This document shows, piece after piece, positions 5,673-13,991 of a DNA stretch of 64,000 nucleotides (its first letter is position 1; each line of letters starts with the position of its first letter). Source of the DNA: a virus; IMG/VR virus record IMGVR_UViG_3300033978_000437. One strand, written 5' to 3'. Below the pieces are notes generated by a model. That model was given only the letters and a program-made list of their open reading frames with translations. It was not told the origin of the DNA and made no database searches. A program made the position numbers and the translations under genes.

Positions 5673-7952
5673 TTACAAAGCACAAGCACCGCCTGCGCAC
5701 GCAGTCTGCTGATGCAAATCTGTCATGTCGGATCGTTCATAGCGAACTAGTTTAGCCCAGTTGATCTTGGGCATAGCTGCAACTCTACGGTCGAACTCTT
5801 CTTGAGAAATCGCTTCATAAGGGGCTAAATGATACATACCCCCATCAAAGGGCAAGAAACTTAAGCCTCCCACAATATCCCAGTTGTCATAGACCCATTT
5901 GCCCACTTCCAACCATTCAGTAGGTCGAATGTAAATAGTGACGCTAGGATTATGCTCAGTCCAATGCACCTTGAAGGTTTTCCATTTTTCCAACTGGCTA
6001 AGAGCTGTTTGAGTTTCTAACAGCACTCCACCTTTAGGAGCCTTCATAGGAAACTCTAATACCAAGCCACTACCATCGTAATCGGTTAAGCAAGGTACAC
6101 CTTCATCTTTCAACATCTGTGCTACTGGATTAGTAGAGTTTGCCCTAACTCGCCTAACATACCATTCCCCGTGATGTCCTTTGAAACCTGCAGGCGTGTT
6201 GAAAAACACACTGCTATCCCCCGAAGGCTTAATACAAGTTGTGGCTGCAGAGACATTGATACCAAATCGTGCTGCCCATTTAGCATTAACTTCGTTGACT
6301 AAACTTAATAACTTAGCTAAAGTTCCACCAGCTTTTGCGTTGTCTTGGAATAGCGGGTGATCAAGAAAACCAAGCAAATCTACACCCAGTAACCTCTCTT
6401 CTTCACTATTCTTTTTCCATTCTTCTCCAATGTACTTAAAGCGAGTCATCGTAGATTGAAGCGTGCCCCAAATTGTAGCTAACTCCACTTTACGAGCAAT
6501 CTCTTCATAAGTGTCCGTGACACGAATAACCGCAATGGATAGGTTGCAGAACTGCTTGTGTCTCAGAATAATTTCACCGCAAGGATTCGTCCCAAAGAGG
6601 TGGCCATGGTGTTTGCGCCGTTTGGGAAACTGACTTTTCAACCCGCCTCGATTGAAGATACCACGCTCACCCGAGTTTGACTTGGCCATCGATAACCATT
6701 CTTCCATCCAAATCAATTGATCAGGTTTTTCGTTATAGACTGCAGAGTTGTTAGCCTGATTGCGTTGCTCATTGGTAGTCCAGAAATCTTGTTGCTTGCA
6801 ATCTCGCATTTCACGATCATGCAGATCTGATAAAGATATACCGCTAGCCCTACGCACCCCACCCATACGCACAATTCGATGAGCAAAACAATTAATGTCA
6901 TGAAGATCCAAGCTAGACAGATACCGTCCTTGTCTTGCTAAGATTCGAGCTTTAGAAAACTCTAACAAGTCTTTTAATGGACCTGGGCCAGAAGCTCTTC
7001 CACCTTTGATTTTAAGTGGAGCACCTGATTCTCGGATATGACTGTAATCAAAGTGGATATCTTCACCTGCCCACCATGCGTCTAACCCTGCCTTATACGC
7101 ATCACACCAACCTTCTGTGCTGTCTTCGATTACATAAGTAATAGGTTCACTATGCTTCTTTTGTCGTTTAACTCGAGGAAACTCTTCTACGCTAAACTCT
7201 TTTTCTACTGAAAATCCAACACCCGTGCCCTGCATGAGTACATAGAGTTCCTCTGCCAAATCTGTAGTATTTTGCAGCATTTGAAAAGAACAGTTGTATA
7301 CTCCGACATGACATCGTTCTAAAGCAGGTCCAGCCATCTGCACGCAACGCATGGAAGGAGCAGACTCTAACCGCAAAAGACTTTGCTTAAGCTTCCCCCA
7401 TTCTTCTTCAGTTACATTGTGGTTTTCACGCTTGCAATGTGTTTGAAAAAATCCGATAACCCGATCCACTGTTTCAGGCCAAGTCTCTCTGCGCCCTAGC
7501 TCGGGAACAAAACGAGCAAACTTGTCTAAAGCTTGGAACTTCTGCAGCTCGTTATCAAAATAAGTGTCGTTTTCTTGAAATGCAGCAACTACCGCTTCGG
7601 GCAATGGTGCGTTTTCTCGTTGCTGTCTTTTGACTTCTCGAAAGAGAATATACTGCTTGGCCACGAGGTATAACCCATTAGCCATCAATTGGGTTTCCAC
7701 TAGATTCTGAATCTCTTCCACATCTACTACTTTGTTGCTGCTGCACACAATGTTGTATACTTGCTCCCCAACTAGTTTGCTGATGCGAGCTGCCTCGCCT
7801 TCATCGTATTTTAGCTCACTTACTAAGCAACGATGTAAGGCAGTGTAGATGCGAGCTTGATCAAAGTTCACCACTTTCCCGCTTCGCTTCTTAACCGTTA
7901 AATCCACATGACTACGAGCTGAAGCATCTTTTTTAAAAGAAGTAATTTGCAC
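5673..7952 (-). CDS. nrdJ: Class II (adenosylcobalamin-dependent) ribonucleotide reductase with N-terminal ATP cone
   Basis: ATP cone (VKKRSGKVVNFDQARI), GGRASGPGPL, GGVRRASGISL, catalytic GTNPCGEI, TCIKPSG, C-terminal ACAGGACAL redox pair. Confidence 0.9.
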   Translation of the reverse strand: MQITSFKKDASARSHVDLTVKKRSGKVVNFDQARIYTALHRCLVSELKYDEGEAARISKLVGEQVYNIVCSSNKVVDVEEIQNLVETQLMANGLYLVAKQYILFREVKRQQRENAPLPEAVVAAFQENDTYFDNELQKFQALDKFARFVPELGRRETWPETVDRVIGFFQTHCKRENHNVTEEEWGKLKQSLLRLESAPSMRCVQMAGPALERCHVGVYNCSFQMLQNTTDLAEELYVLMQGTGVGFSVEKEFSVEEFPRVKRQKKHSEPITYVIEDSTEGWCDAYKAGLDAWWAGEDIHFDYSHIRESGAPLKIKGGRASGPGPLKDLLEFSKARILARQGRYLSSLDLHDINCFAHRIVRMGGVRRASGISLSDLHDREMRDCKQQDFWTTNEQRNQANNSAVYNEKPDQLIWMEEWLSMAKSNSGERGIFNRGGLKSQFPKRRKHHGHLFGTNPCGEIILRHKQFCNLSIAVIRVTDTYEEIARKVELATIWGTLQSTMTRFKYIGEEWKKNSEEERLLGVDLLGFLDHPLFQDNAKAGGTLAKLLSLVNEVNAKWAARFGINVSAATTCIKPSGDSSVFFNTPAGFKGHHGEWYVRRVRANSTNPVAQMLKDEGVPCLTDYDGSGLVLEFPMKAPKGGVLLETQTALSQLEKWKTFKVHWTEHNPSVTIYIRPTEWLEVGKWVYDNWDIVGGLSFLPFDGGMYHLAPYEAISQEEFDRRVAAMPKINWAKLVRYERSDMTDLHQQTACAGGACAL

Positions 7953-8072: not shown

Positions 8073-8519
8073 TTATTGTTCGTGATCGTTGTTTTTTTCT
8101 ACATAATCAGAAAAGTCAGTAGAAGGTACATCTTTGCCATTCCACATCATGCGAGAACGAGGCCCAAGCTCTCGAGAAACTTGTGCATAATCCGCTACAA
8201 TTTCTTGATCTTTGCTAATTTCTCGCTTTGCTACTAAATCAATTTGATCCTTATCTTTCTTTATGTCAACATTTGCTTTCCATTGATGGTTACAGTAACG
8301 AGCTAATTCTGTTAAATTCCAGATTTTAGACCCAAACTCATCTTCTCCGCCAGCAGTCCCAGCACTACCAATGCTCTCTCCTTCTTTGTAATCTTTATCC
8401 GCAAATATACCTTTCCCTTTTATATGGGATTCCCCTATATACCAGCCATTATGGCTAGAGGCCATTTTGTCAGTAAATCGGATAGGTACTGCTCGTAATC
8501 GCTGAAGAAACGCTTCCAT
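8073..8519 (-). CDS. SET-domain protein (putative lysine methyltransferase) with a KxA-ending leader
   Basis: SHIKGKGIFA (GxG), RYCNHQ (RxxNHS), LVAKREISKDQEIVADY (ELxxDY); leader ends DKMASS. Confidence 0.8.
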   Translation of the reverse strand: MEAFLQRLRAVPIRFTDKMASSHNGWYIGESHIKGKGIFADKDYKEGESIGSAGTAGGEDEFGSKIWNLTELARYCNHQWKANVDIKKDKDQIDLVAKREISKDQEIVADYAQVSRELGPRSRMMWNGKDVPSTDFSDYVEKNNDHEQ

Positions 8520-8531
8520 GATAACTCCTTA

Positions 8532-8560
8532 TTGACTTGCTTGCATAAAATAAGTATGGT
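8532..8560 (+). promoter_or_regulatory. Sigma70-like promoter for csrA
   Basis: TTGACT-17 nt-TATGGT, 43 nt upstream of the csrA ATG in the only divergent intergenic region. Confidence 0.5.
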
Positions 8561-8603
8561 GATCGAATTCCAAGCATTTTAACTTCAAGGAAGGACGATT
8601 CAA

Positions 8604-8816
8604 ATGCTAGTATTAAGTCGAAGAAAAGGCGAGAGCATTAAGATCAGTGATAACATCACTATCACCATAGTGGACATTCGTGGGGATAAAATTCAAATAG
8701 GAATAGAAGCTCCTCGTGAAGTTGCCGTACACCGTAGCGAAATAGCGAAGTTAATTGAAAATAAACTCAAGGCAGAGTCCAACTTGGAAGCTCCTGAGAA
8801 TCCTTCTGCTTCGTAG
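8604..8816 (+). CDS. csrA: Carbon storage regulator CsrA/RsmA homolog
   Basis: MLVLSRRKGESIKISDNITITIVDIRGDKIQIGIEAPREVAVHRSEI matches the CsrA signature; SD AAGGAAGGA. Confidence 0.95.
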   Translation: MLVLSRRKGESIKISDNITITIVDIRGDKIQIGIEAPREVAVHRSEIAKLIENKLKAESNLEAPENPSAS

Positions 8817-9351
8817 ATTTACTCGTAGCATTGGCAGTGAGTACCCCAGTTTTACGCACTGCCACTATTATGGAAAAATCAGAATCACCTTCAACTTTGG
8901 TAGGTAACCCGTAGCTACGGCGTAACTTACCTAGTTCTGGCGATTTGATTCGCATGTGCCAGCAAGTAGAAACACCGGGCCAACCTTTGGCAGATGTTTC
9001 TTCAAGCCCATCAAGGTAATAGCTAAAAGCTTTACCTCGCTCGCTTATCTTCTCAGTACCACCTATTTGCTTTAATTCTTCGGGGGTCATAACCACGATA
9101 CCTGCACGCAAAGCCCCGCCATCTACAGAAGTGGGTAAAGAAATACCAGGTTCGTGCATTGCGTCGAAAATACCACGGACTAATGCAGTAGGTATGCCAA
9201 CTATCAAGTAACTAGGAGCTGCACATTTTGAATTAGTGATTTGAAGCAAACCCGTCATTTTAACTTCCGCCCATTTCTCGGGCATTTGCAAAACATCATA
9301 GAGCAATAAATGCCGATAATCTGGAATATCAGCTGTAGAGATCAGACTCAT
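8767..9351 (-). CDS. 2H-phosphoesterase-like protein with both HxT/S motifs apparently lost
   Basis: Spacing and flanks resemble phage 2H proteins (LRAGIVVMTPEEL...SPELGKLRRSYGL...DFSIIVAVRK), but the positions expected to be HIS/HIT read GIV and SII; KCAA motif. Confidence 0.4.
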   Translation of the reverse strand: MSLISTADIPDYRHLLLYDVLQMPEKWAEVKMTGLLQITNSKCAAPSYLIVGIPTALVRGIFDAMHEPGISLPTSVDGGALRAGIVVMTPEELKQIGGTEKISERGKAFSYYLDGLEETSAKGWPGVSTCWHMRIKSPELGKLRRSYGLPTKVEGDSDFSIIVAVRKTGVLTANATSKSTKQKDSQELPSWTLP

Positions 9352-9366
9352 AAAAACTCCCTTAAC

Positions 9367-9720
9367 CTATTTCATAATTGCGGCATAAACTGAAAATGAA
9401 GAAAGCAACACAGTAAGAATCATGCCAGACAAACCTACAACTAACTGTGTTCTAGTGAGCATGCGAGAAGCGGTCATAGAATTGGCATATTGGCTAATTT
9501 GTTCTAAGTCTTTAATCTGACCTTCTAATACTGTCTCTACTTGAGCTAACCGCTGCATAATAGACGGCTGACCATTACCATCTCGTACCAACTTACACAG
9601 GATATGAATGTCCTGACTCATATGATCCACTTTAGCTTCAACTGATGCCACTTGTTGTATTAATCTTTCTTGAGTTAATGCTAAGGCGTGATATTGAGTA
9701 GTTGTCATGCTTCTCGGCAT
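9367..9720 (-). CDS. Small coiled-coil membrane protein (holin/XhlA-like)
   Basis: Coiled coil, VRDGNGQPS motif, single C-terminal TM (LVVGLSGMILTVLLSSFSVYAAIM); alternative ATG at 9708. Confidence 0.45.
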   Translation of the reverse strand: MPRSMTTTQYHALALTQERLIQQVASVEAKVDHMSQDIHILCKLVRDGNGQPSIMQRLAQVETVLEGQIKDLEQISQYANSMTASRMLTRTQLVVGLSGMILTVLLSSFSVYAAIMK

Positions 9721-9749
9721 CCTTGTAAGAGAAGAGAAATAGCTAAGTG

Positions 9750-9986
9750 GCCCCTTGAGATCCCCTTCCTCAAGTCCAGTGCGGAAGCGTTCCGCTGGTA
9801 ACAGTCATAAGGTGCGACTGGAACTCCACCAGCTGGCTGTTTTTCACTTGCCCAGCAATCCTAATGCAAATTGCGGCTATCCTAGCTGCGCTGCATTTCC
9901 TAACCTATCGGCACCTGCGATAAAGCCACTTGGGCTGATTATACCTCTTAAGTAGAGGCAACAGCAAGAGTAGGAAATTTGTTAGG
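9750..9986 (-). ncRNA. Candidate structured, GGA-rich RNA or 5' leader (CsrA-site/CsrB-like)
   Basis: Intergenic with at least six hairpins (+ strand: CTTGAG/CTCAAG 9754-9774, GCGGAA/TTCCGC 9781-9795, CAGTC/GACTG 9802-9820, AATGCA/TGCATT, GCGGCTA/TAGCTGC, CCTCT/AGAGG); 8 minus-strand GGA in 9761-9900. Strand is uncertain. Confidence 0.4.
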
Positions 9987-10712
9987 TTAGCTGGCATCTT
10001 TTTTATCCCATAGCCTTTTTAAAAGTTCCCACAAATCGGATTGTAAGTTCTCTTCCTTGTTCTCTACCATCCACTTTTCTACTTCCTTAGCTGTCTCCAT
10101 CATTCGGTCTAAACGCAAGGCACCTATACTGCGAAGCTCTGACACCAAGGTAAGCAGTAACACCCCAGCAGAAGCCGGCACATAGTCTTCTGTTTTACCT
10201 TTTTTAATCTTTATCTCGTCCTCATCCGCTTTGAAGGAATCTTCAACTGGAAGGTAAGCATCGTCATCAAAGATGATTTCTTCGTCATCATCGTCGTCTT
10301 CTTCGTCGCTACCTTCAACCCCTTCCCTACCTTTGTGCCCTTCGTAATTATGGCACTCCTTGTAGTTCTCCTTGTAGTTCTCCTTATATGTATTATCTGT
10401 AGCCAGTTTGCTTTCCAACGAAGAAAAGAAATCAAGCAGATTTTCCGGTCCTATTAGCTTTACTAGTTCTTCTGCATTGTCTGTATACACATAGCAGCAG
10501 GCAATTTCAGCGTGGGTTACGGAATCAGAGTTTTGGCTTAAAGGTAATAAAGTCGTGTACACGAGGCAAGGATAGGATTCTGGGCTTTTAGGTAACTGTA
10601 TCGACAACGAACTGCCATCTGCAGCCATATTCAATTCAGTTATCATATCTTTCTGATAATGCTGCCACTCTTCTTTATTATGAAGCATAACCGCTTTTTT
10701 AAACTTACTCAT
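9987..10712 (-). CDS. Hypothetical protein with an acidic tract
   Basis: 241 aa; SDEEDDDDDEE tract; KENYKENYKE microrepeat (12-nt unit at about 10356-10386). Confidence 0.7.
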   Translation of the reverse strand: MSKFKKAVMLHNKEEWQHYQKDMITELNMAADGSSLSIQLPKSPESYPCLVYTTLLPLSQNSDSVTHAEIACCYVYTDNAEELVKLIGPENLLDFFSSLESKLATDNTYKENYKENYKECHNYEGHKGREGVEGSDEEDDDDDEEIIFDDDAYLPVEDSFKADEDEIKIKKGKTEDYVPASAGVLLLTLVSELRSIGALRLDRMMETAKEVEKWMVENKEENLQSDLWELLKRLWDKKDAS

Positions 10713-10730: not shown

Positions 10731-10940
10731 TTAACCTTCCGTCCACCCCTGTTTGTAGCCCCACAATCCCACCTCTAACTTAGAGGAAAGATTTAGTTTT
10801 TTACGGATACGTTTAACATAAGTCTTAATTGTTTCATAGCCAAGATTAAGCTTTACTGCAATGTCTTTGTACTTTAAGTTTTTACTGATTAGTATGACTA
10901 TTTCCCGTTCTCGTGCCGTCAACCCTTTGTCTTGCTGCAT
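10731..10940 (-). CDS. Stand-alone LuxR/GerE-type HTH regulator
   Basis: LTAREREIVILISKNLKYKDIAVKLNLGYETIKTYVKRIRKKL. Confidence 0.9.
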   Translation of the reverse strand: MQQDKGLTAREREIVILISKNLKYKDIAVKLNLGYETIKTYVKRIRKKLNLSSKLEVGLWGYKQGWTEG

Positions 10941-10961: not shown

Positions 10962-11738
10962 TTAAAATAAAGTGGTACTATCCATGTATTCGAGCACATC
11001 ATGAGGCGCCGCACTTTTCAGCTCGGTCCAATTCATCACTCGACTGCGAACATCCCTACGCTGTACTCGTTTTTGGTTGGGCAAACATGCTGGGCTAAAC
11101 TTTAACTCCAAAAACTCTAACAGATTCTCTAAGACACCTCGAAAGTCTAAAAGTAACTCATGATAGGGAATAACAGCTCGGTCTGGGCAAAGCCTATTAA
11201 CTTTAGACATAGCTGCAGTGTGGTCCCGCACAAATTGCGTTAGTTCTGCAGGTTCAATGCAAATTGCAGGTAAGCGGTCACTACTACTAATTTCCACATT
11301 ACCCTCCCTTTGCTGCTGCTGTTTCCACGCAACATAACAAGCAATAGGATTACGCACAACATGCACTAAACAGAAATCGCCACGGCGACAACGCTGGTCC
11401 GTATAATCCCACAAATCGTAATGGCGTAAGTGTTCGTAATTGACCTTTACCCCGACGGCCTTTTCGCCATGCAGTATGTTGTCAAAAATCTTGTTATTGA
11501 AGTATTGTTCAACGCTTAGATGGGTGGGATCAAAATGGTCAATGATTTTACCAGTAGTCCCAAAGTACATGGAATGTTCGACTTTTCTAACCTTGTCATC
11601 ATCGTGAAGCAGATCGCCATGACAAACTATGTCAGGGTGTGCAGCTAAAGAAGACTGTAATAAACCATACCCCGAATGCCGATTTCCGATCACCATAAAA
11701 TTAAGAATTTCTGCGTTTTCTCGGTTGTACCAAGCCAT
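10962..11738 (-). CDS. Stf0-like sulfotransferase
   Basis: FMVIGNRHSGYGLLQSSLAAHPDIVCHGDLL (5'-PSB loop, RSGS-like), GVKV, HVVRNPIACYVA (3'-PB), IPYHELL. Confidence 0.7.
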   Translation of the reverse strand: MAWYNRENAEILNFMVIGNRHSGYGLLQSSLAAHPDIVCHGDLLHDDDKVRKVEHSMYFGTTGKIIDHFDPTHLSVEQYFNNKIFDNILHGEKAVGVKVNYEHLRHYDLWDYTDQRCRRGDFCLVHVVRNPIACYVAWKQQQQREGNVEISSSDRLPAICIEPAELTQFVRDHTAAMSKVNRLCPDRAVIPYHELLLDFRGVLENLLEFLELKFSPACLPNQKRVQRRDVRSRVMNWTELKSAAPHDVLEYMDSTTLF

Positions 11739-11817: not shown

Positions 11818-12252
11818 TTAATCAATTATTTTTGAGACATACGCTCGCCAGACCCGAGCATAGCACTTACCCCAGCTGCTACGATGGGGCTCTCCAGTTA
11901 CCCCATGTGCTACTTGGTCTAATGCGTGTGCCCACTCATGAAGAAGGGTATCAATAGCCGTAACTGGGGCTAAATTACTGTCTACTTCAATGACAAAACG
12001 AGTTACTTTGCCATTATCATCCAAATAAGCTATGCAGCATCCGCATAGCTTTTCTCTGTTTAGATCTTTACTAATTACTTTGATAGGGCGGGCTATTTTG
12101 CATTCTTTGCGTAACATGCGTAAGACCGCACGAAACTTTGCACCTTGTCCATCTGTTCGCTCAGCCATGTCACCCTCCTTGGCACTTTGGCATAAAACAA
12201 CAGTTACTTCCACGGATGTAGTTGGCGGTAAGCCTTCACCTCTTCCTGACAC
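11818..12252 (-). CDS. Small zincin-like metallopeptidase (likely start 12168)
   Basis: IDTLLHEWAHA (HExxH) plus downstream EPHRSSWG (SprT-like); ATG 12168 follows AAGGAGG. Confidence 0.7.
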   Translation of the reverse strand: MSGRGEGLPPTTSVEVTVVLCQSAKEGDMAERTDGQGAKFRAVLRMLRKECKIARPIKVISKDLNREKLCGCCIAYLDDNGKVTRFVIEVDSNLAPVTAIDTLLHEWAHALDQVAHGVTGEPHRSSWGKCYARVWRAYVSKIID

Positions 12253-12620
12253 TTTTTGTTAGTGATTGTCCAGTTACCCGAATGACCTAGAAAAAAATGA
12301 TGCTTGCGACATAAGGTAATTAAATTATCCGGATCCAGCTCCAACTCGGGATTGTTTTTAAAACTAAAAATATGATGCACATTGAGGTTTTGCGAGCTAC
12401 CGCAAGCTTCACAGCAAGGGTGCGCCTTGATAAATCGCTGGCGCACCGCAGGCCACTTCCCCGAGCGAGGGCCCTCGAATACCGCATGGTCATGCGATAC
12501 CATCTCAGCTTGTTGTTCAACTGGCTCTAGCGGAATTTCCAGTTCATAGAGGGTGGGGAAATTCCCCCACCCCAATAAACAGCCGAAAAACAACAAAAGT
12601 ACTAACCAAAAGAACTTCAT
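12204..12620 (-). CDS. HNH endonuclease with N-terminal signal peptide/TM anchor
   Basis: MKFFWLVLLLFFGCLLGWG hydrophobic leader; CEACG...LNVHH...NLITLCRKHH. Confidence 0.8.
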   Translation of the reverse strand: MKFFWLVLLLFFGCLLGWGNFPTLYELEIPLEPVEQQAEMVSHDHAVFEGPRSGKWPAVRQRFIKAHPCCEACGSSQNLNVHHIFSFKNNPELELDPDNLITLCRKHHFFLGHSGNWTITNKKCQEEVKAYRQLHPWK

Positions 12621-13991
12621 TTACTTGCCCTTCTGGGGAAAACCCACACCCGTGGGCTTCCCCGTGTAACTATTGAGGTTTACCTGCAATCTTGCTACTG
12701 GGCCAGTATCGTGATCCCATACAAAGGCCATAGCACCCCGTTGCTGCCAGTTAAATCCTTTTAATCGATGCCAAGCATTAGGAGGAGTTAAAGCGGGTAA
12801 ATACTCAACGCCAACCCCTTGCTCCTCCATTACTACAGGACTTCCAGTTCCTTTGCGGTGCTGGTCTCCTAAATGCCACTCCCTAAAGCTAGTGTCTGCC
12901 CAGTGCTCACGGCATTCGTGTGCCATCAAGGCAGCCAATCGAATGGACTTAATATGATGCCCATGATCAAACCCAATCAAGTTAGTACCGAAACGATAAA
13001 ACTTATAAGGGCTTGGAGTTACATCTACTGTAACATTATCGTCGTTGCGATAGTAGGCTTTTAACACCTGTCCTAGGCTAAACGAAGCTTGCTGGTCGTG
13101 ATTACCAGAAACTTGAATTACCCTAACCGGAGCTAGTGCCGTAAGCTTGTCCACCATGGTAACTGCAAGCTTAATTGCATTCTCGTACACATGCTGGAAG
13201 GACAGACCTTCTGGCTGAAGTGTTCCCCTCGTGGTGGTGTGCATTGCGTTATCATGGTGGAGGAAGTCATTCCCAAAAGGAAAGACAATCTCTTCAAACT
13301 TACCATACAAGTGGGCTTGGGCTAGCAGCGAGTCAATTGCCCACAGACACATGCGACTGCATTCCTCTAAGCTCCAATTGTGATCGCTTTCACCCTTGTA
13401 GCATTGCATGCCATAGTGCGGATCCATGATCGATACTTCAAGGGCACGACGAGCTTTCTGCTTCTTGTCTTTAGGATATTTAATCTTCAGCGTAATAGGC
13501 GAGTTATCTTCTAGCTGCTGAAGCACACGATCTACCGCCACTCTTTCATCTCGCTTACGCCTTAGCTGTACCTTAATCTGCTTTAGCCCAGTCTTCCAGA
13601 TCCCGCTGGTGGGCTTAGCCCCTGCAACTTCCCAGTTGTTGACGGTGATGCGTTCCACCTCATACAACTCCATGTCAATTCCGGATTTTAAAAGAAGTTC
13701 TTCTGCAGTGTTAATCTGGTCGCCCACGTAATCAACTTCAGTAAATTGACCTCGTTCATTGATAGTTAGTTTTTCTTTGGCAGACTTTGCAATATTCTGA
13801 CCAGGCTTTGGCTTTATGCTGGTCATTGCCCGCATGCGTTCCATTAGCCCAGCTTTTTTAAGCCTTGCACCAACAGTGGAACGATAAGGTATACCTAGTG
13901 CTGTGGCTGTTTTAGCCAAGCTACCACCACAGCTTATTGCCGTATCAAAGATAACTTGAATGGGAATATCATACTTAGGCTTAACTGGCAT
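12621..13991 (-). CDS. Calcineurin-like metallophosphoesterase with N-terminal HTH
   Basis: IMDPHYG, FGNDFLH, VSGNHD, FDHGH, HLGDQH; N-terminal GGSLAKTATALGIPYRSTVGARL HTH. Confidence 0.8.
   Translation of the reverse strand: MPVKPKYDIPIQVIFDTAISCGGSLAKTATALGIPYRSTVGARLKKAGLMERMRAMTSIKPKPGQNIAKSAKEKLTINERGQFTEVDYVGDQINTAEELLLKSGIDMELYEVERITVNNWEVAGAKPTSGIWKTGLKQIKVQLRRKRDERVAVDRVLQQLEDNSPITLKIKYPKDKKQKARRALEVSIMDPHYGMQCYKGESDHNWSLEECSRMCLWAIDSLLAQAHLYGKFEEIVFPFGNDFLHHDNAMHTTTRGTLQPEGLSFQHVYENAIKLAVTMVDKLTALAPVRVIQVSGNHDQQASFSLGQVLKAYYRNDDNVTVDVTPSPYKFYRFGTNLIGFDHGHHIKSIRLAALMAHECREHWADTSFREWHLGDQHRKGTGSPVVMEEQGVGVEYLPALTPPNAWHRLKGFNWQQRGAMAFVWDHDTGPVARLQVNLNSYTGKPTGVGFPQKGK

Follow-up and report, generated by a model that had tools for sequence, protein, structure and literature searches.

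A structured leader RNA at the head of a small phage operon, in synteny with viral csrA and predicted to place translation under CsrA control

The RNA described here is a folded domain of about 190 nucleotides, encoded on the minus strand of a phage genome and positioned at the head of a small operon. The core comprises seven helices, the outermost of which (P1) closes the whole domain, together with a loop–loop kissing pseudoknot. It represents an undescribed RNA family that is absent from Rfam and restricted to phages, specifically large uncultured aquatic ones. It is read here, with moderate confidence, as the structured 5′ leader of the operon, whose translation is predicted to be controlled by CsrA. 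An earlier reading of the letters alone (the original prediction) had placed a GGA-dense structured intergenic RNA at positions 9750–9986 and proposed either a CsrB-like sponge or a CsrA-controlled lysis leader. A structured RNA does lie in this gap, with redrawn borders: on the minus strand, it begins at approximately 9931 and reaches the start codon at 9708.

The window is the whole stretch of DNA that was analysed (64,000 nucleotides) and forms part of a 178.8-kb uncultured phage record (IMG/VR, IMGVR_UViG_3300033978_000437). Its minus strand holds nearly all of the genes around the RNA, which are arranged as follows:

5673–7952, minus: class II-like ribonucleotide reductase
8073–8519, minus: SET-domain protein (Pfam, E 1e-7)
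8604–8816, plus: phage csrA, convergent with the leader operon (Pfam CsrA, E 2.6e-23)
8767–9351, minus: 2H-phosphoesterase-like protein
9367–9708, minus: 113-amino acid membrane protein, the first gene of the leader's operon
9987–10712, minus: 241-amino acid protein with no assigned function
10731–10940, minus: stand-alone 69-amino acid HTH protein of the LuxR/GerE or sigma-70 region-4 type, two genes upstream of the RNA

The nearby csrA gene of the original prediction is thus real, and it is the sole plus-strand gene in the neighbourhood. The 3′ ends of csrA and the convergent 2H-phosphoesterase-like gene overlap by 50 nt, so that two convergent transcripts would be mutually antisense there. 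The closest relative has a sulfotransferase-like gene between the gene of the 241-amino acid protein and the RNA promoter (L001:4715–5300 / L002); the window has no such gene at this position, and a sulfotransferase-family gene is found instead at 10962–11738. Further along, an HNH endonuclease gene abuts, directly downstream, an SbcD/Mre11-like exonuclease gene (12204–13991, minus). A scan for tRNA and tmRNA genes found none.

Two flanking proteins led to two related IMG/VR contigs as the first relatives. In the three-way alignment, a conserved promoter-like block precedes a stretch of about 200 nt whose conservation far exceeds that of the neighbouring genes and in which compensatory changes are visible. 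The family of the 113-amino acid protein (about 42 clusters) was used to fetch 123 loci, and the search passed from nhmmer to a profile and then to a covariance model, R1. The model located the RNA in 64 of the 88 sources searched. Within the loci fetched via the membrane protein, every hit lies on the strand of the membrane gene and upstream of it. The R1 matches take in high-GC relatives and leave out loci with merely marginal membrane-protein matches. There is one copy of the RNA per genome; the window's own genome was checked and holds no extra copies.

An Rfam search, one of the checks proposed with the original prediction, returned no family match in the window at gathering score, whether to a known riboswitch class or to CsrB, CsrC or RsmX/Y/Z. 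At E ≤ 10 over 9500–10200, it gave three chance matches, none of them Csr/Rsm. Neither blastn with the nucleotide region nor tblastn with the membrane protein matched any GenBank phage, and no cultured relative came to light. When 185,579 prokaryote genomes were scanned with a degenerate pattern, there were four matches and no chromosomal or host copy; three of the matches are due to chance and have no profile support, while the other (L139) is a 175-kb phage-like contig inside a MAG.

The elements of the folded core, in the order in which they would be transcribed after the closing stem, are as follows:

9744–9934, minus: folded core, the match to R1 (163.7 bits, E 4.9e-50), with a covariation-supported consensus
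9923–9930 (5′ strand) and 9746–9753 (3′ strand), minus: P1, closing the whole domain; 97.5% of cells paired, 7 of 8 pairs changing on both sides
9906–9922, minus: P2, a hairpin whose 7-nt loop L2 (9911–9917) takes part in the kissing pseudoknot; 100% paired
9897–9905, minus: J2/3, a near-invariant purine-rich junction with AGGA; UUAGGAG or UUAGGAA in 47 of 59 distinct sequences
9864–9896, minus: P3, a long hairpin with GGA (9880–9882) in its capping loop
9857–9863, minus: J3/4, a junction with GGA (Y-R-GGA-Y)
9832–9856, minus: P4, a hairpin with a conserved GAAAA-type loop; 98.3% paired, 5 of 5 pairs covarying
9821–9831, minus: J4/5, with an invariant GG-N-GG (four invariant G columns)
9802–9820, minus: P5, a hairpin whose loop L5 (9807–9815) kisses L2
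9776–9798, minus: P6, a hairpin; 69.8% paired in a MAFFT alignment that is ragged at this point
9754–9774, minus: P7, a hairpin with an invariant loop G-N-AGGGGAU (9760–9768); 98.9% paired, 5 of 6 pairs covarying

The energy of single-sequence folding is unremarkable compared with shuffles (z = +0.57 for the minus strand and −1.73 for the plus strand). As neither value is significant, the case for structure rests on comparison. When 60 distinct sequences are aligned by the model, the proportion of paired cells is 97.3%, as against 78.8% in shuffles, and 33 of the 35 pairs change on both sides, which bears out the covariation expected by the original prediction. The covariation score is 0.73, compared with 0.35 in shuffles (none of 500 reaches the observed value) and 0.10–0.16 in slid controls. 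RNAalifold, run on 56 sequences, predicted 45 pairs, 40 of which show double changes. The frequent G-U pairs and the compensatory changes fix the strand as minus, and the earlier caveat that G-U pairs favour neither strand has therefore been set aside.

The kissing helix, formed by L2 (9911–9916) and L5 (9810–9815), is absent from the covariance model that made the alignment; it is 97.7% paired with all six pairs covarying, and one example position reads C-G in 31 sequences and U-A in 28. The loop-closing pair of P4 is likewise U-A in some sequences and C-G in others. Both of the hairpins named in the original prediction are real and covary, corresponding to P7 with its 9-nt purine loop and to the tip of P3 (9873–9889) with its GGA loop. 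The P7 loop is kept in 59 of 59 sequences, and when the P3 segment is folded alone, 47 of 53 distinct homologues have its GGA in the terminal loop. P6 is short in the window's clade; it is longer, with a CUUAGCRG loop, in other clades.

Upstream of the core lies a conserved promoter-like block:

9962–9967, minus: −35-like hexamer TTGCTG, 18 nt before the −10; TCGACG, TTGATG or TCGACA in relatives
9938–9943, minus: −10 hexamer TATAAT; TATAAT, TAGAAT or TATGAT among homologues

Almost all of the distinct homologues have the two hexamers at a fixed spacing of 17–18 nt. Among the distinct upstream sequences that were examined, most have their −10 at 1–4 nt before the first position of R1, which is itself 4 nt 5′ of stem P1. 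This placement predicts a transcript start near 9930–9932, close to the base of P1. The conserved sigma-70-type promoter is thus predicted to drive a minus-strand leader that extends to the start codon at 9708. Matches to a sigma-70-type promoter on the coding strand of the whole genome number five, against about 11.5 expected by chance, and the promoter of the RNA is one of these few. The segment 9944–9986 consists of this promoter and a spacer predicted to be untranscribed; hence the alternative pairings with 9971–9990 put forward in the original prediction lie upstream of the promoter and outside the predicted transcript. A hairpin in the promoter spacer (9944–9958) was also considered and was rejected, as it is not conserved in L003.

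No terminator-like site separates the core from the gene, and in every lineage examined the core is followed on the same strand by a ribosome binding site (RBS) and an ORF. In the window, this ORF encodes the 113-amino acid protein. Its true start is the ATG at 9708, as an upstream in-frame ATG falls out of frame in L002. The protein consists of two cytoplasmic helices with an invariant RDGNGQPS turn between them and a C-terminal membrane helix, such that it is tail-anchored. An invariant LCKxVRDGNGQPS turn and the C-terminal membrane helix are common to the family. The membrane gene of some clades is separated from the core by further genes (L057:1309–2280, L070:1956–2910 and L077/L079), which encode either a protein of 317–322 amino acids with a signal-peptide-like hydrophobic N-terminus or one of 336–552 amino acids. 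These intervening genes show that the RNA heads an operon rather than one fixed gene.

Sequence searches of the membrane protein against Pfam, PHROGs and PDB gave coiled-coil noise and only weak holin, hemolysin or XhlA hints. These consist of one XhlA-like match in an ESM Atlas feature search and stray PHROG holin/hemolysin matches near E = 0.002–0.008. The AlphaFold model (mean pLDDT 60) has two helices, the turn and the membrane helix, and is too poor for a fold search. With hints this weak and a model of this quality, the label of “lysis leader” is unsupported. The proposal of a CsrA-controlled lysis leader therefore survives in its regulatory half, through the CsrA-type site over the downstream RBS described below, and loses its lysis half.

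The RBS of the membrane gene is itself held in a hairpin:

9710–9734, minus: P8, the RBS hairpin, formed by a C/U-rich 5′ arm and a purine-rich 3′ arm, with the Shine–Dalgarno sequence in the loop
9718–9725, minus: candidate CsrA-type site CAAGGAUG (C-A-A-GGA-U-G), 9 nt before the ATG at 9708

The linker between P1 and P8 is short, being U/C-rich in many relatives, and the start codon lies directly 3′ of the P8 stem. In most of the 64 distinct tails, the consensus C-A-N-GGA-Y-G, where N is A, U, C or G, is found in or on a hairpin before the start codon. The sequence of the P8 stems varies among clades while the pairing is kept. Folding of 56 tails left the GGA unpaired and enclosed by a stem in 33; most of the others form a small U-C-A or U-G-A hairpin around N-GGA. 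P8 covaries as an independent, stand-alone hairpin, and inspection of the 64 tails revealed no conserved alternative pairing of P8 with P1 or the core.

Structural work has described the high-affinity CsrA/RsmE site as an A-N-GGA-X hexaloop placed directly on a C-G-closed stem (Duss 2014, PMC4005645). In the SELEX consensus for CsrA, ACA and GGA are invariant (quoted in PMC7652899), and the P8 site of the window matches this consensus at 10 of 12 positions. The site thus has the high-affinity context in loop, closing pair and SELEX fit, and its GGA overlaps the Shine–Dalgarno sequence. GGA belongs to the phage's normal Shine–Dalgarno sequence, which is usually AAGGAG in this genome, and GGA alone is for that reason little proof. 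An ordinary Shine–Dalgarno sequence would not fix C-A and Y-G around a free N. The full motif occurs at only about 5 of 184 gene starts. Genome-wide, the excess of the CsrA-type octamer is not significant (41 observed against 32 ± 6 in shuffles). The RBS of the membrane gene can repeat the motif where another gene intervenes after the core (L057, L051), and three csrA-positive lineages (L077, L079 and L139) have no GGA at the first RBS after the core.

Among 58 distinct RNA loci, 47 carry csrA in the flank; without exception the gene is on the opposite strand, and its end lies −4 to 1062 nt (median 544) beyond the membrane gene. Of the other 11 loci, eight run out of contig within 860 nt; where enough flank is available, the count is 47 of 50. 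This synteny persists among phages with proteins as divergent as about 35% identity. Together with the CsrA-type site over the RBS, it upholds the part of the original prediction that described a structured, GGA-rich, non-coding RNA functionally linked to the phage csrA, as distinct from its sponge reading, which is weighed below. In the remaining three loci (L091, L083 and L092), about 3 kb of flank carries no csrA.

Searches of whole records found two csrA genes in the window's own genome and in three relatives, one each in G005 (L139) and G007 (L094), and none in G004 (L091; 100% complete), G006 and G008. In G004, the core is retained (118 bits), GGA is gone at J2/3, J3/4, J4/5 and the RBS, and the four GGA that are left in the core are the fewest of any core. 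The csrA-less L083 and L092 keep a GGA-type RBS, and the correlation between loss of csrA and loss of GGA consequently rests mainly on the one genome, G004. The second csrA paralogue of the window's phage is divergent (about 62 amino acids) and lies outside the window (G000:C1:9559–9714).

The csrA gene has a leader of its own, which carries the following feature:

8586–8597, plus: candidate tandem CsrA-type site (C-A-N-GGA-A-GGA) on the RBS of csrA

At least two GGA are present in the last 25 nt of 45 of 53 distinct csrA leaders, and 33 contain C-A-N-GGA-N-G. The E. coli csrA gene is known to be autoregulated, and the tandem motif suggests that the phage csrA is autoregulated as well. A sigma-70-like promoter match (TTGACT, 17 nt, TATGGT) precedes csrA in the window (8532–8603, plus). 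R6, R44 and E46, which are conserved residues for RNA binding, are retained in the phage CsrA proteins. A csrA gene is carried by 81 GenBank phage records; searches of full-text literature turned up no cognate RNA, whether partner or target, reported for a viral CsrA.

From these features, a mechanism can be proposed. The sigma-70-type promoter would give a transcript starting a few bases before P1, the first 190 or so nucleotides of which would fold into the compact domain. The linker would then lead to P8, which would present the Shine–Dalgarno sequence as a C-G-closed A-N-GGA-X loop. CsrA bound to this loop would compete with the ribosome and so set the timing or amount of the membrane protein. 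That CsrA binds P8 and represses translation is predicted from the strong match in sequence and structure, and from a motif that the two units of the module have in common. The source of this CsrA could be the phage gene, which lies convergently about 0.5 kb beyond the operon's end, or possibly the host. A second hold for the CsrA dimer may come from one or more A(N)GGA sites of the core, namely those of the P3 loop, J2/3 and J3/4. The measured range for bridging by a CsrA dimer on linear RNA is 10–63 nt; the P3-loop GGA is about 150 nt from P8 and thus beyond it, and the GGA of the P7 loop and of J6/7 are about 41–55 nt upstream of P8 and have no A(N)GGA context.

A bolder form of this mechanism would make the folded RNA, the membrane gene and the convergent csrA a self-contained viral switch. 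In that case the core would act as a novel aptamer or docking domain for a protein, which either senses a signal or uses its A(N)GGA sites to capture CsrA, and thereby gates the access of CsrA to the RBS. This extension is tentative, being possible and well short of probable. If true, the switch module would be a new riboswitch-like class working with virus-encoded CsrA.

Several other explanations of the same region have been weighed against the CsrA-controlled leader. One of them grants no RNA element and sees a small protein gene or a DNA-level site, for which a 66-amino acid, TTG-started ORF on the plus strand (9755–9955) could be cited. This is extremely improbable in view of the compensatory substitutions in the helices, the many G-U pairs that exist only on the minus strand and the pattern of coding potential. 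As the original prediction held, the gap has no credible ORF: the 59 homologues do not keep to lengths in multiples of three, all three residues modulo 3 being represented, nearly all have stops in every frame, and no frame is open in more than 10 of the 59. The sponge reading of the original prediction supposes a CsrB/RsmZ-like RNA, whole or processed from the leader, which would soak up several CsrA dimers and time CsrA activity during infection. The eight GGA counted on the minus strand at 9761–9900 were confirmed, against a background of 2.07 ± 1.4 per 140 nt in the window, where 0.1% of 140-nt segments reach eight. Across the family, seven to eight GGA per core, three or four of them as A(N)GGA in loops or junctions (P3 loop, J2/3 and J3/4, 18–21 nt apart in the window), would suit a sponge, as would the RNA's own promoter, the tight synteny with csrA and the two csrA genes in the genome. 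The GGA of J4/5 and of the P7 loop have no AGGA context and are embedded in a complex fold. Measured against the G/A-rich composition of the core itself, however, the excess is small, with 7.1 GGA observed per core and 5.0 expected (approximately 1.4-fold). The RNA also runs past the core into an RBS and ORF in every lineage with no terminator-like site, has long invariant stretches other than GGA in a fixed, tertiary-style fold where sponges are simple series of GGA stem-loops that conserve little else, matches no CsrB, CsrC or RsmX/Y/Z model in Rfam, and keeps its core where csrA is missing. A CsrB-like sponge is accordingly unlikely. A slim chance is likewise given to a trans-acting structured RNA with a task of another kind (for example as a ribozyme, in modulating the ribosome or RNA polymerase, or in countering defence), for which the position ahead of the operon would be incidental. 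Its size and complexity are within the range of functional ornate RNAs, and it is phage-restricted and occurs once per genome; against this stand the absence of any 3′ end signal and the RBS hairpin and same-strand ORF that always follow closely after the core.

The most conserved parts of the core, namely the P7 loop, the GG-N-GG of J4/5 and the P4 loop, are not CsrA-like. These invariant parts and the kissing loop survive in the absence of csrA, which points to a function of the core's own. The core may on this account be a sensor in its own right, either an aptamer for a metabolite or ion or a platform for another protein, with CsrA acting as a separate layer at P8 or with the synteny reflecting co-regulation without contact between CsrA and the core. 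This is a possibility to be taken seriously, if one that falls clearly short of even. It fits the aptamer- or ribozyme-like appearance of the RNA, with its P1-closed multi-helix junction, kissing loop, GNRA-like loop and invariant junctions of 7–10 nt in no CsrA-like context, and its position as a complex, covariation-backed fold in a 5′ UTR at the 5′ end of the mRNA. The fold is kept in csrA-less genomes while GGA sites decay, and a combination of aptamer and CsrA sites has a precedent (PMC7652899). It would nevertheless be a sensor with no recognisable expression platform, since P8 does not pair conservedly with P1 or the core in the 64 tails inspected; the downstream genes (the membrane protein, and others in some clades) hint at no ligand, and no known riboswitch class matches.

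The preferred reading, a leader with CsrA control of translation, can be compared with systems that are already known. Leaders repressed by CsrA/RsmE, of the E. coli glgC and Pseudomonas hcnA type, also have a GGA over the Shine–Dalgarno sequence in a C-G-closed A-N-GGA-X hairpin loop, further GGA upstream and a regulator encoded in the same genetic system. They are short and simple, whereas the phage site follows a seven-helix, pseudoknotted domain of about 190 nt conserved far beyond GGA. They differ also in that the whole phage module of RNA, target gene and csrA is phage-borne and its CsrA contact is a prediction from the sequence.

By analogy, the nearest precedent for a core combined with CsrA sites would be the E. 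coli moaA leader, a Moco riboswitch aptamer with two CsrA sites (PMC7652899). Both are complex, conserved, aptamer-like 5′ leader folds accompanied by CsrA sites, with two possible inputs on one RBS (PMC7652899). The folds are unrelated, with no Rfam match, and in moaA the CsrA binds inside the aptamer and activates translation. The best candidate site of the phage leader is outside the core and on the RBS, which predicts repression.

The CsrB, RsmZ and RsmY sponges resemble the phage RNA in their number of GGA (7–8), some of them in hairpin loops, and in having their own promoter and a link to the CsrA family. Unlike them, the phage RNA has no terminator and continues into mRNA, matches none of their Rfam models, possesses a long-range closing stem, a kissing loop and invariant non-GGA segments, and persists without csrA. 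The ROOL and GOLLD RNAs of Rfam are likewise phage-borne, richly structured and covariation-supported with no assigned function. They are free-standing RNAs of 500–800 nt, in contrast to the core of about 190 nt at the 5′ end of an mRNA, which shares no sequence or model match with them.

Phage csrA genes were already known; what is new is a widespread family of structured RNA in synteny with viral csrA. The module makes the use of CsrA by viruses directly testable, in terms of which RNA is read, whether the outcome is repression and what the 190-nt fold contributes. Being large and conserved, the fold could also prove to be a new aptamer or another kind of RNA machine, and it lends itself well to structure determination.
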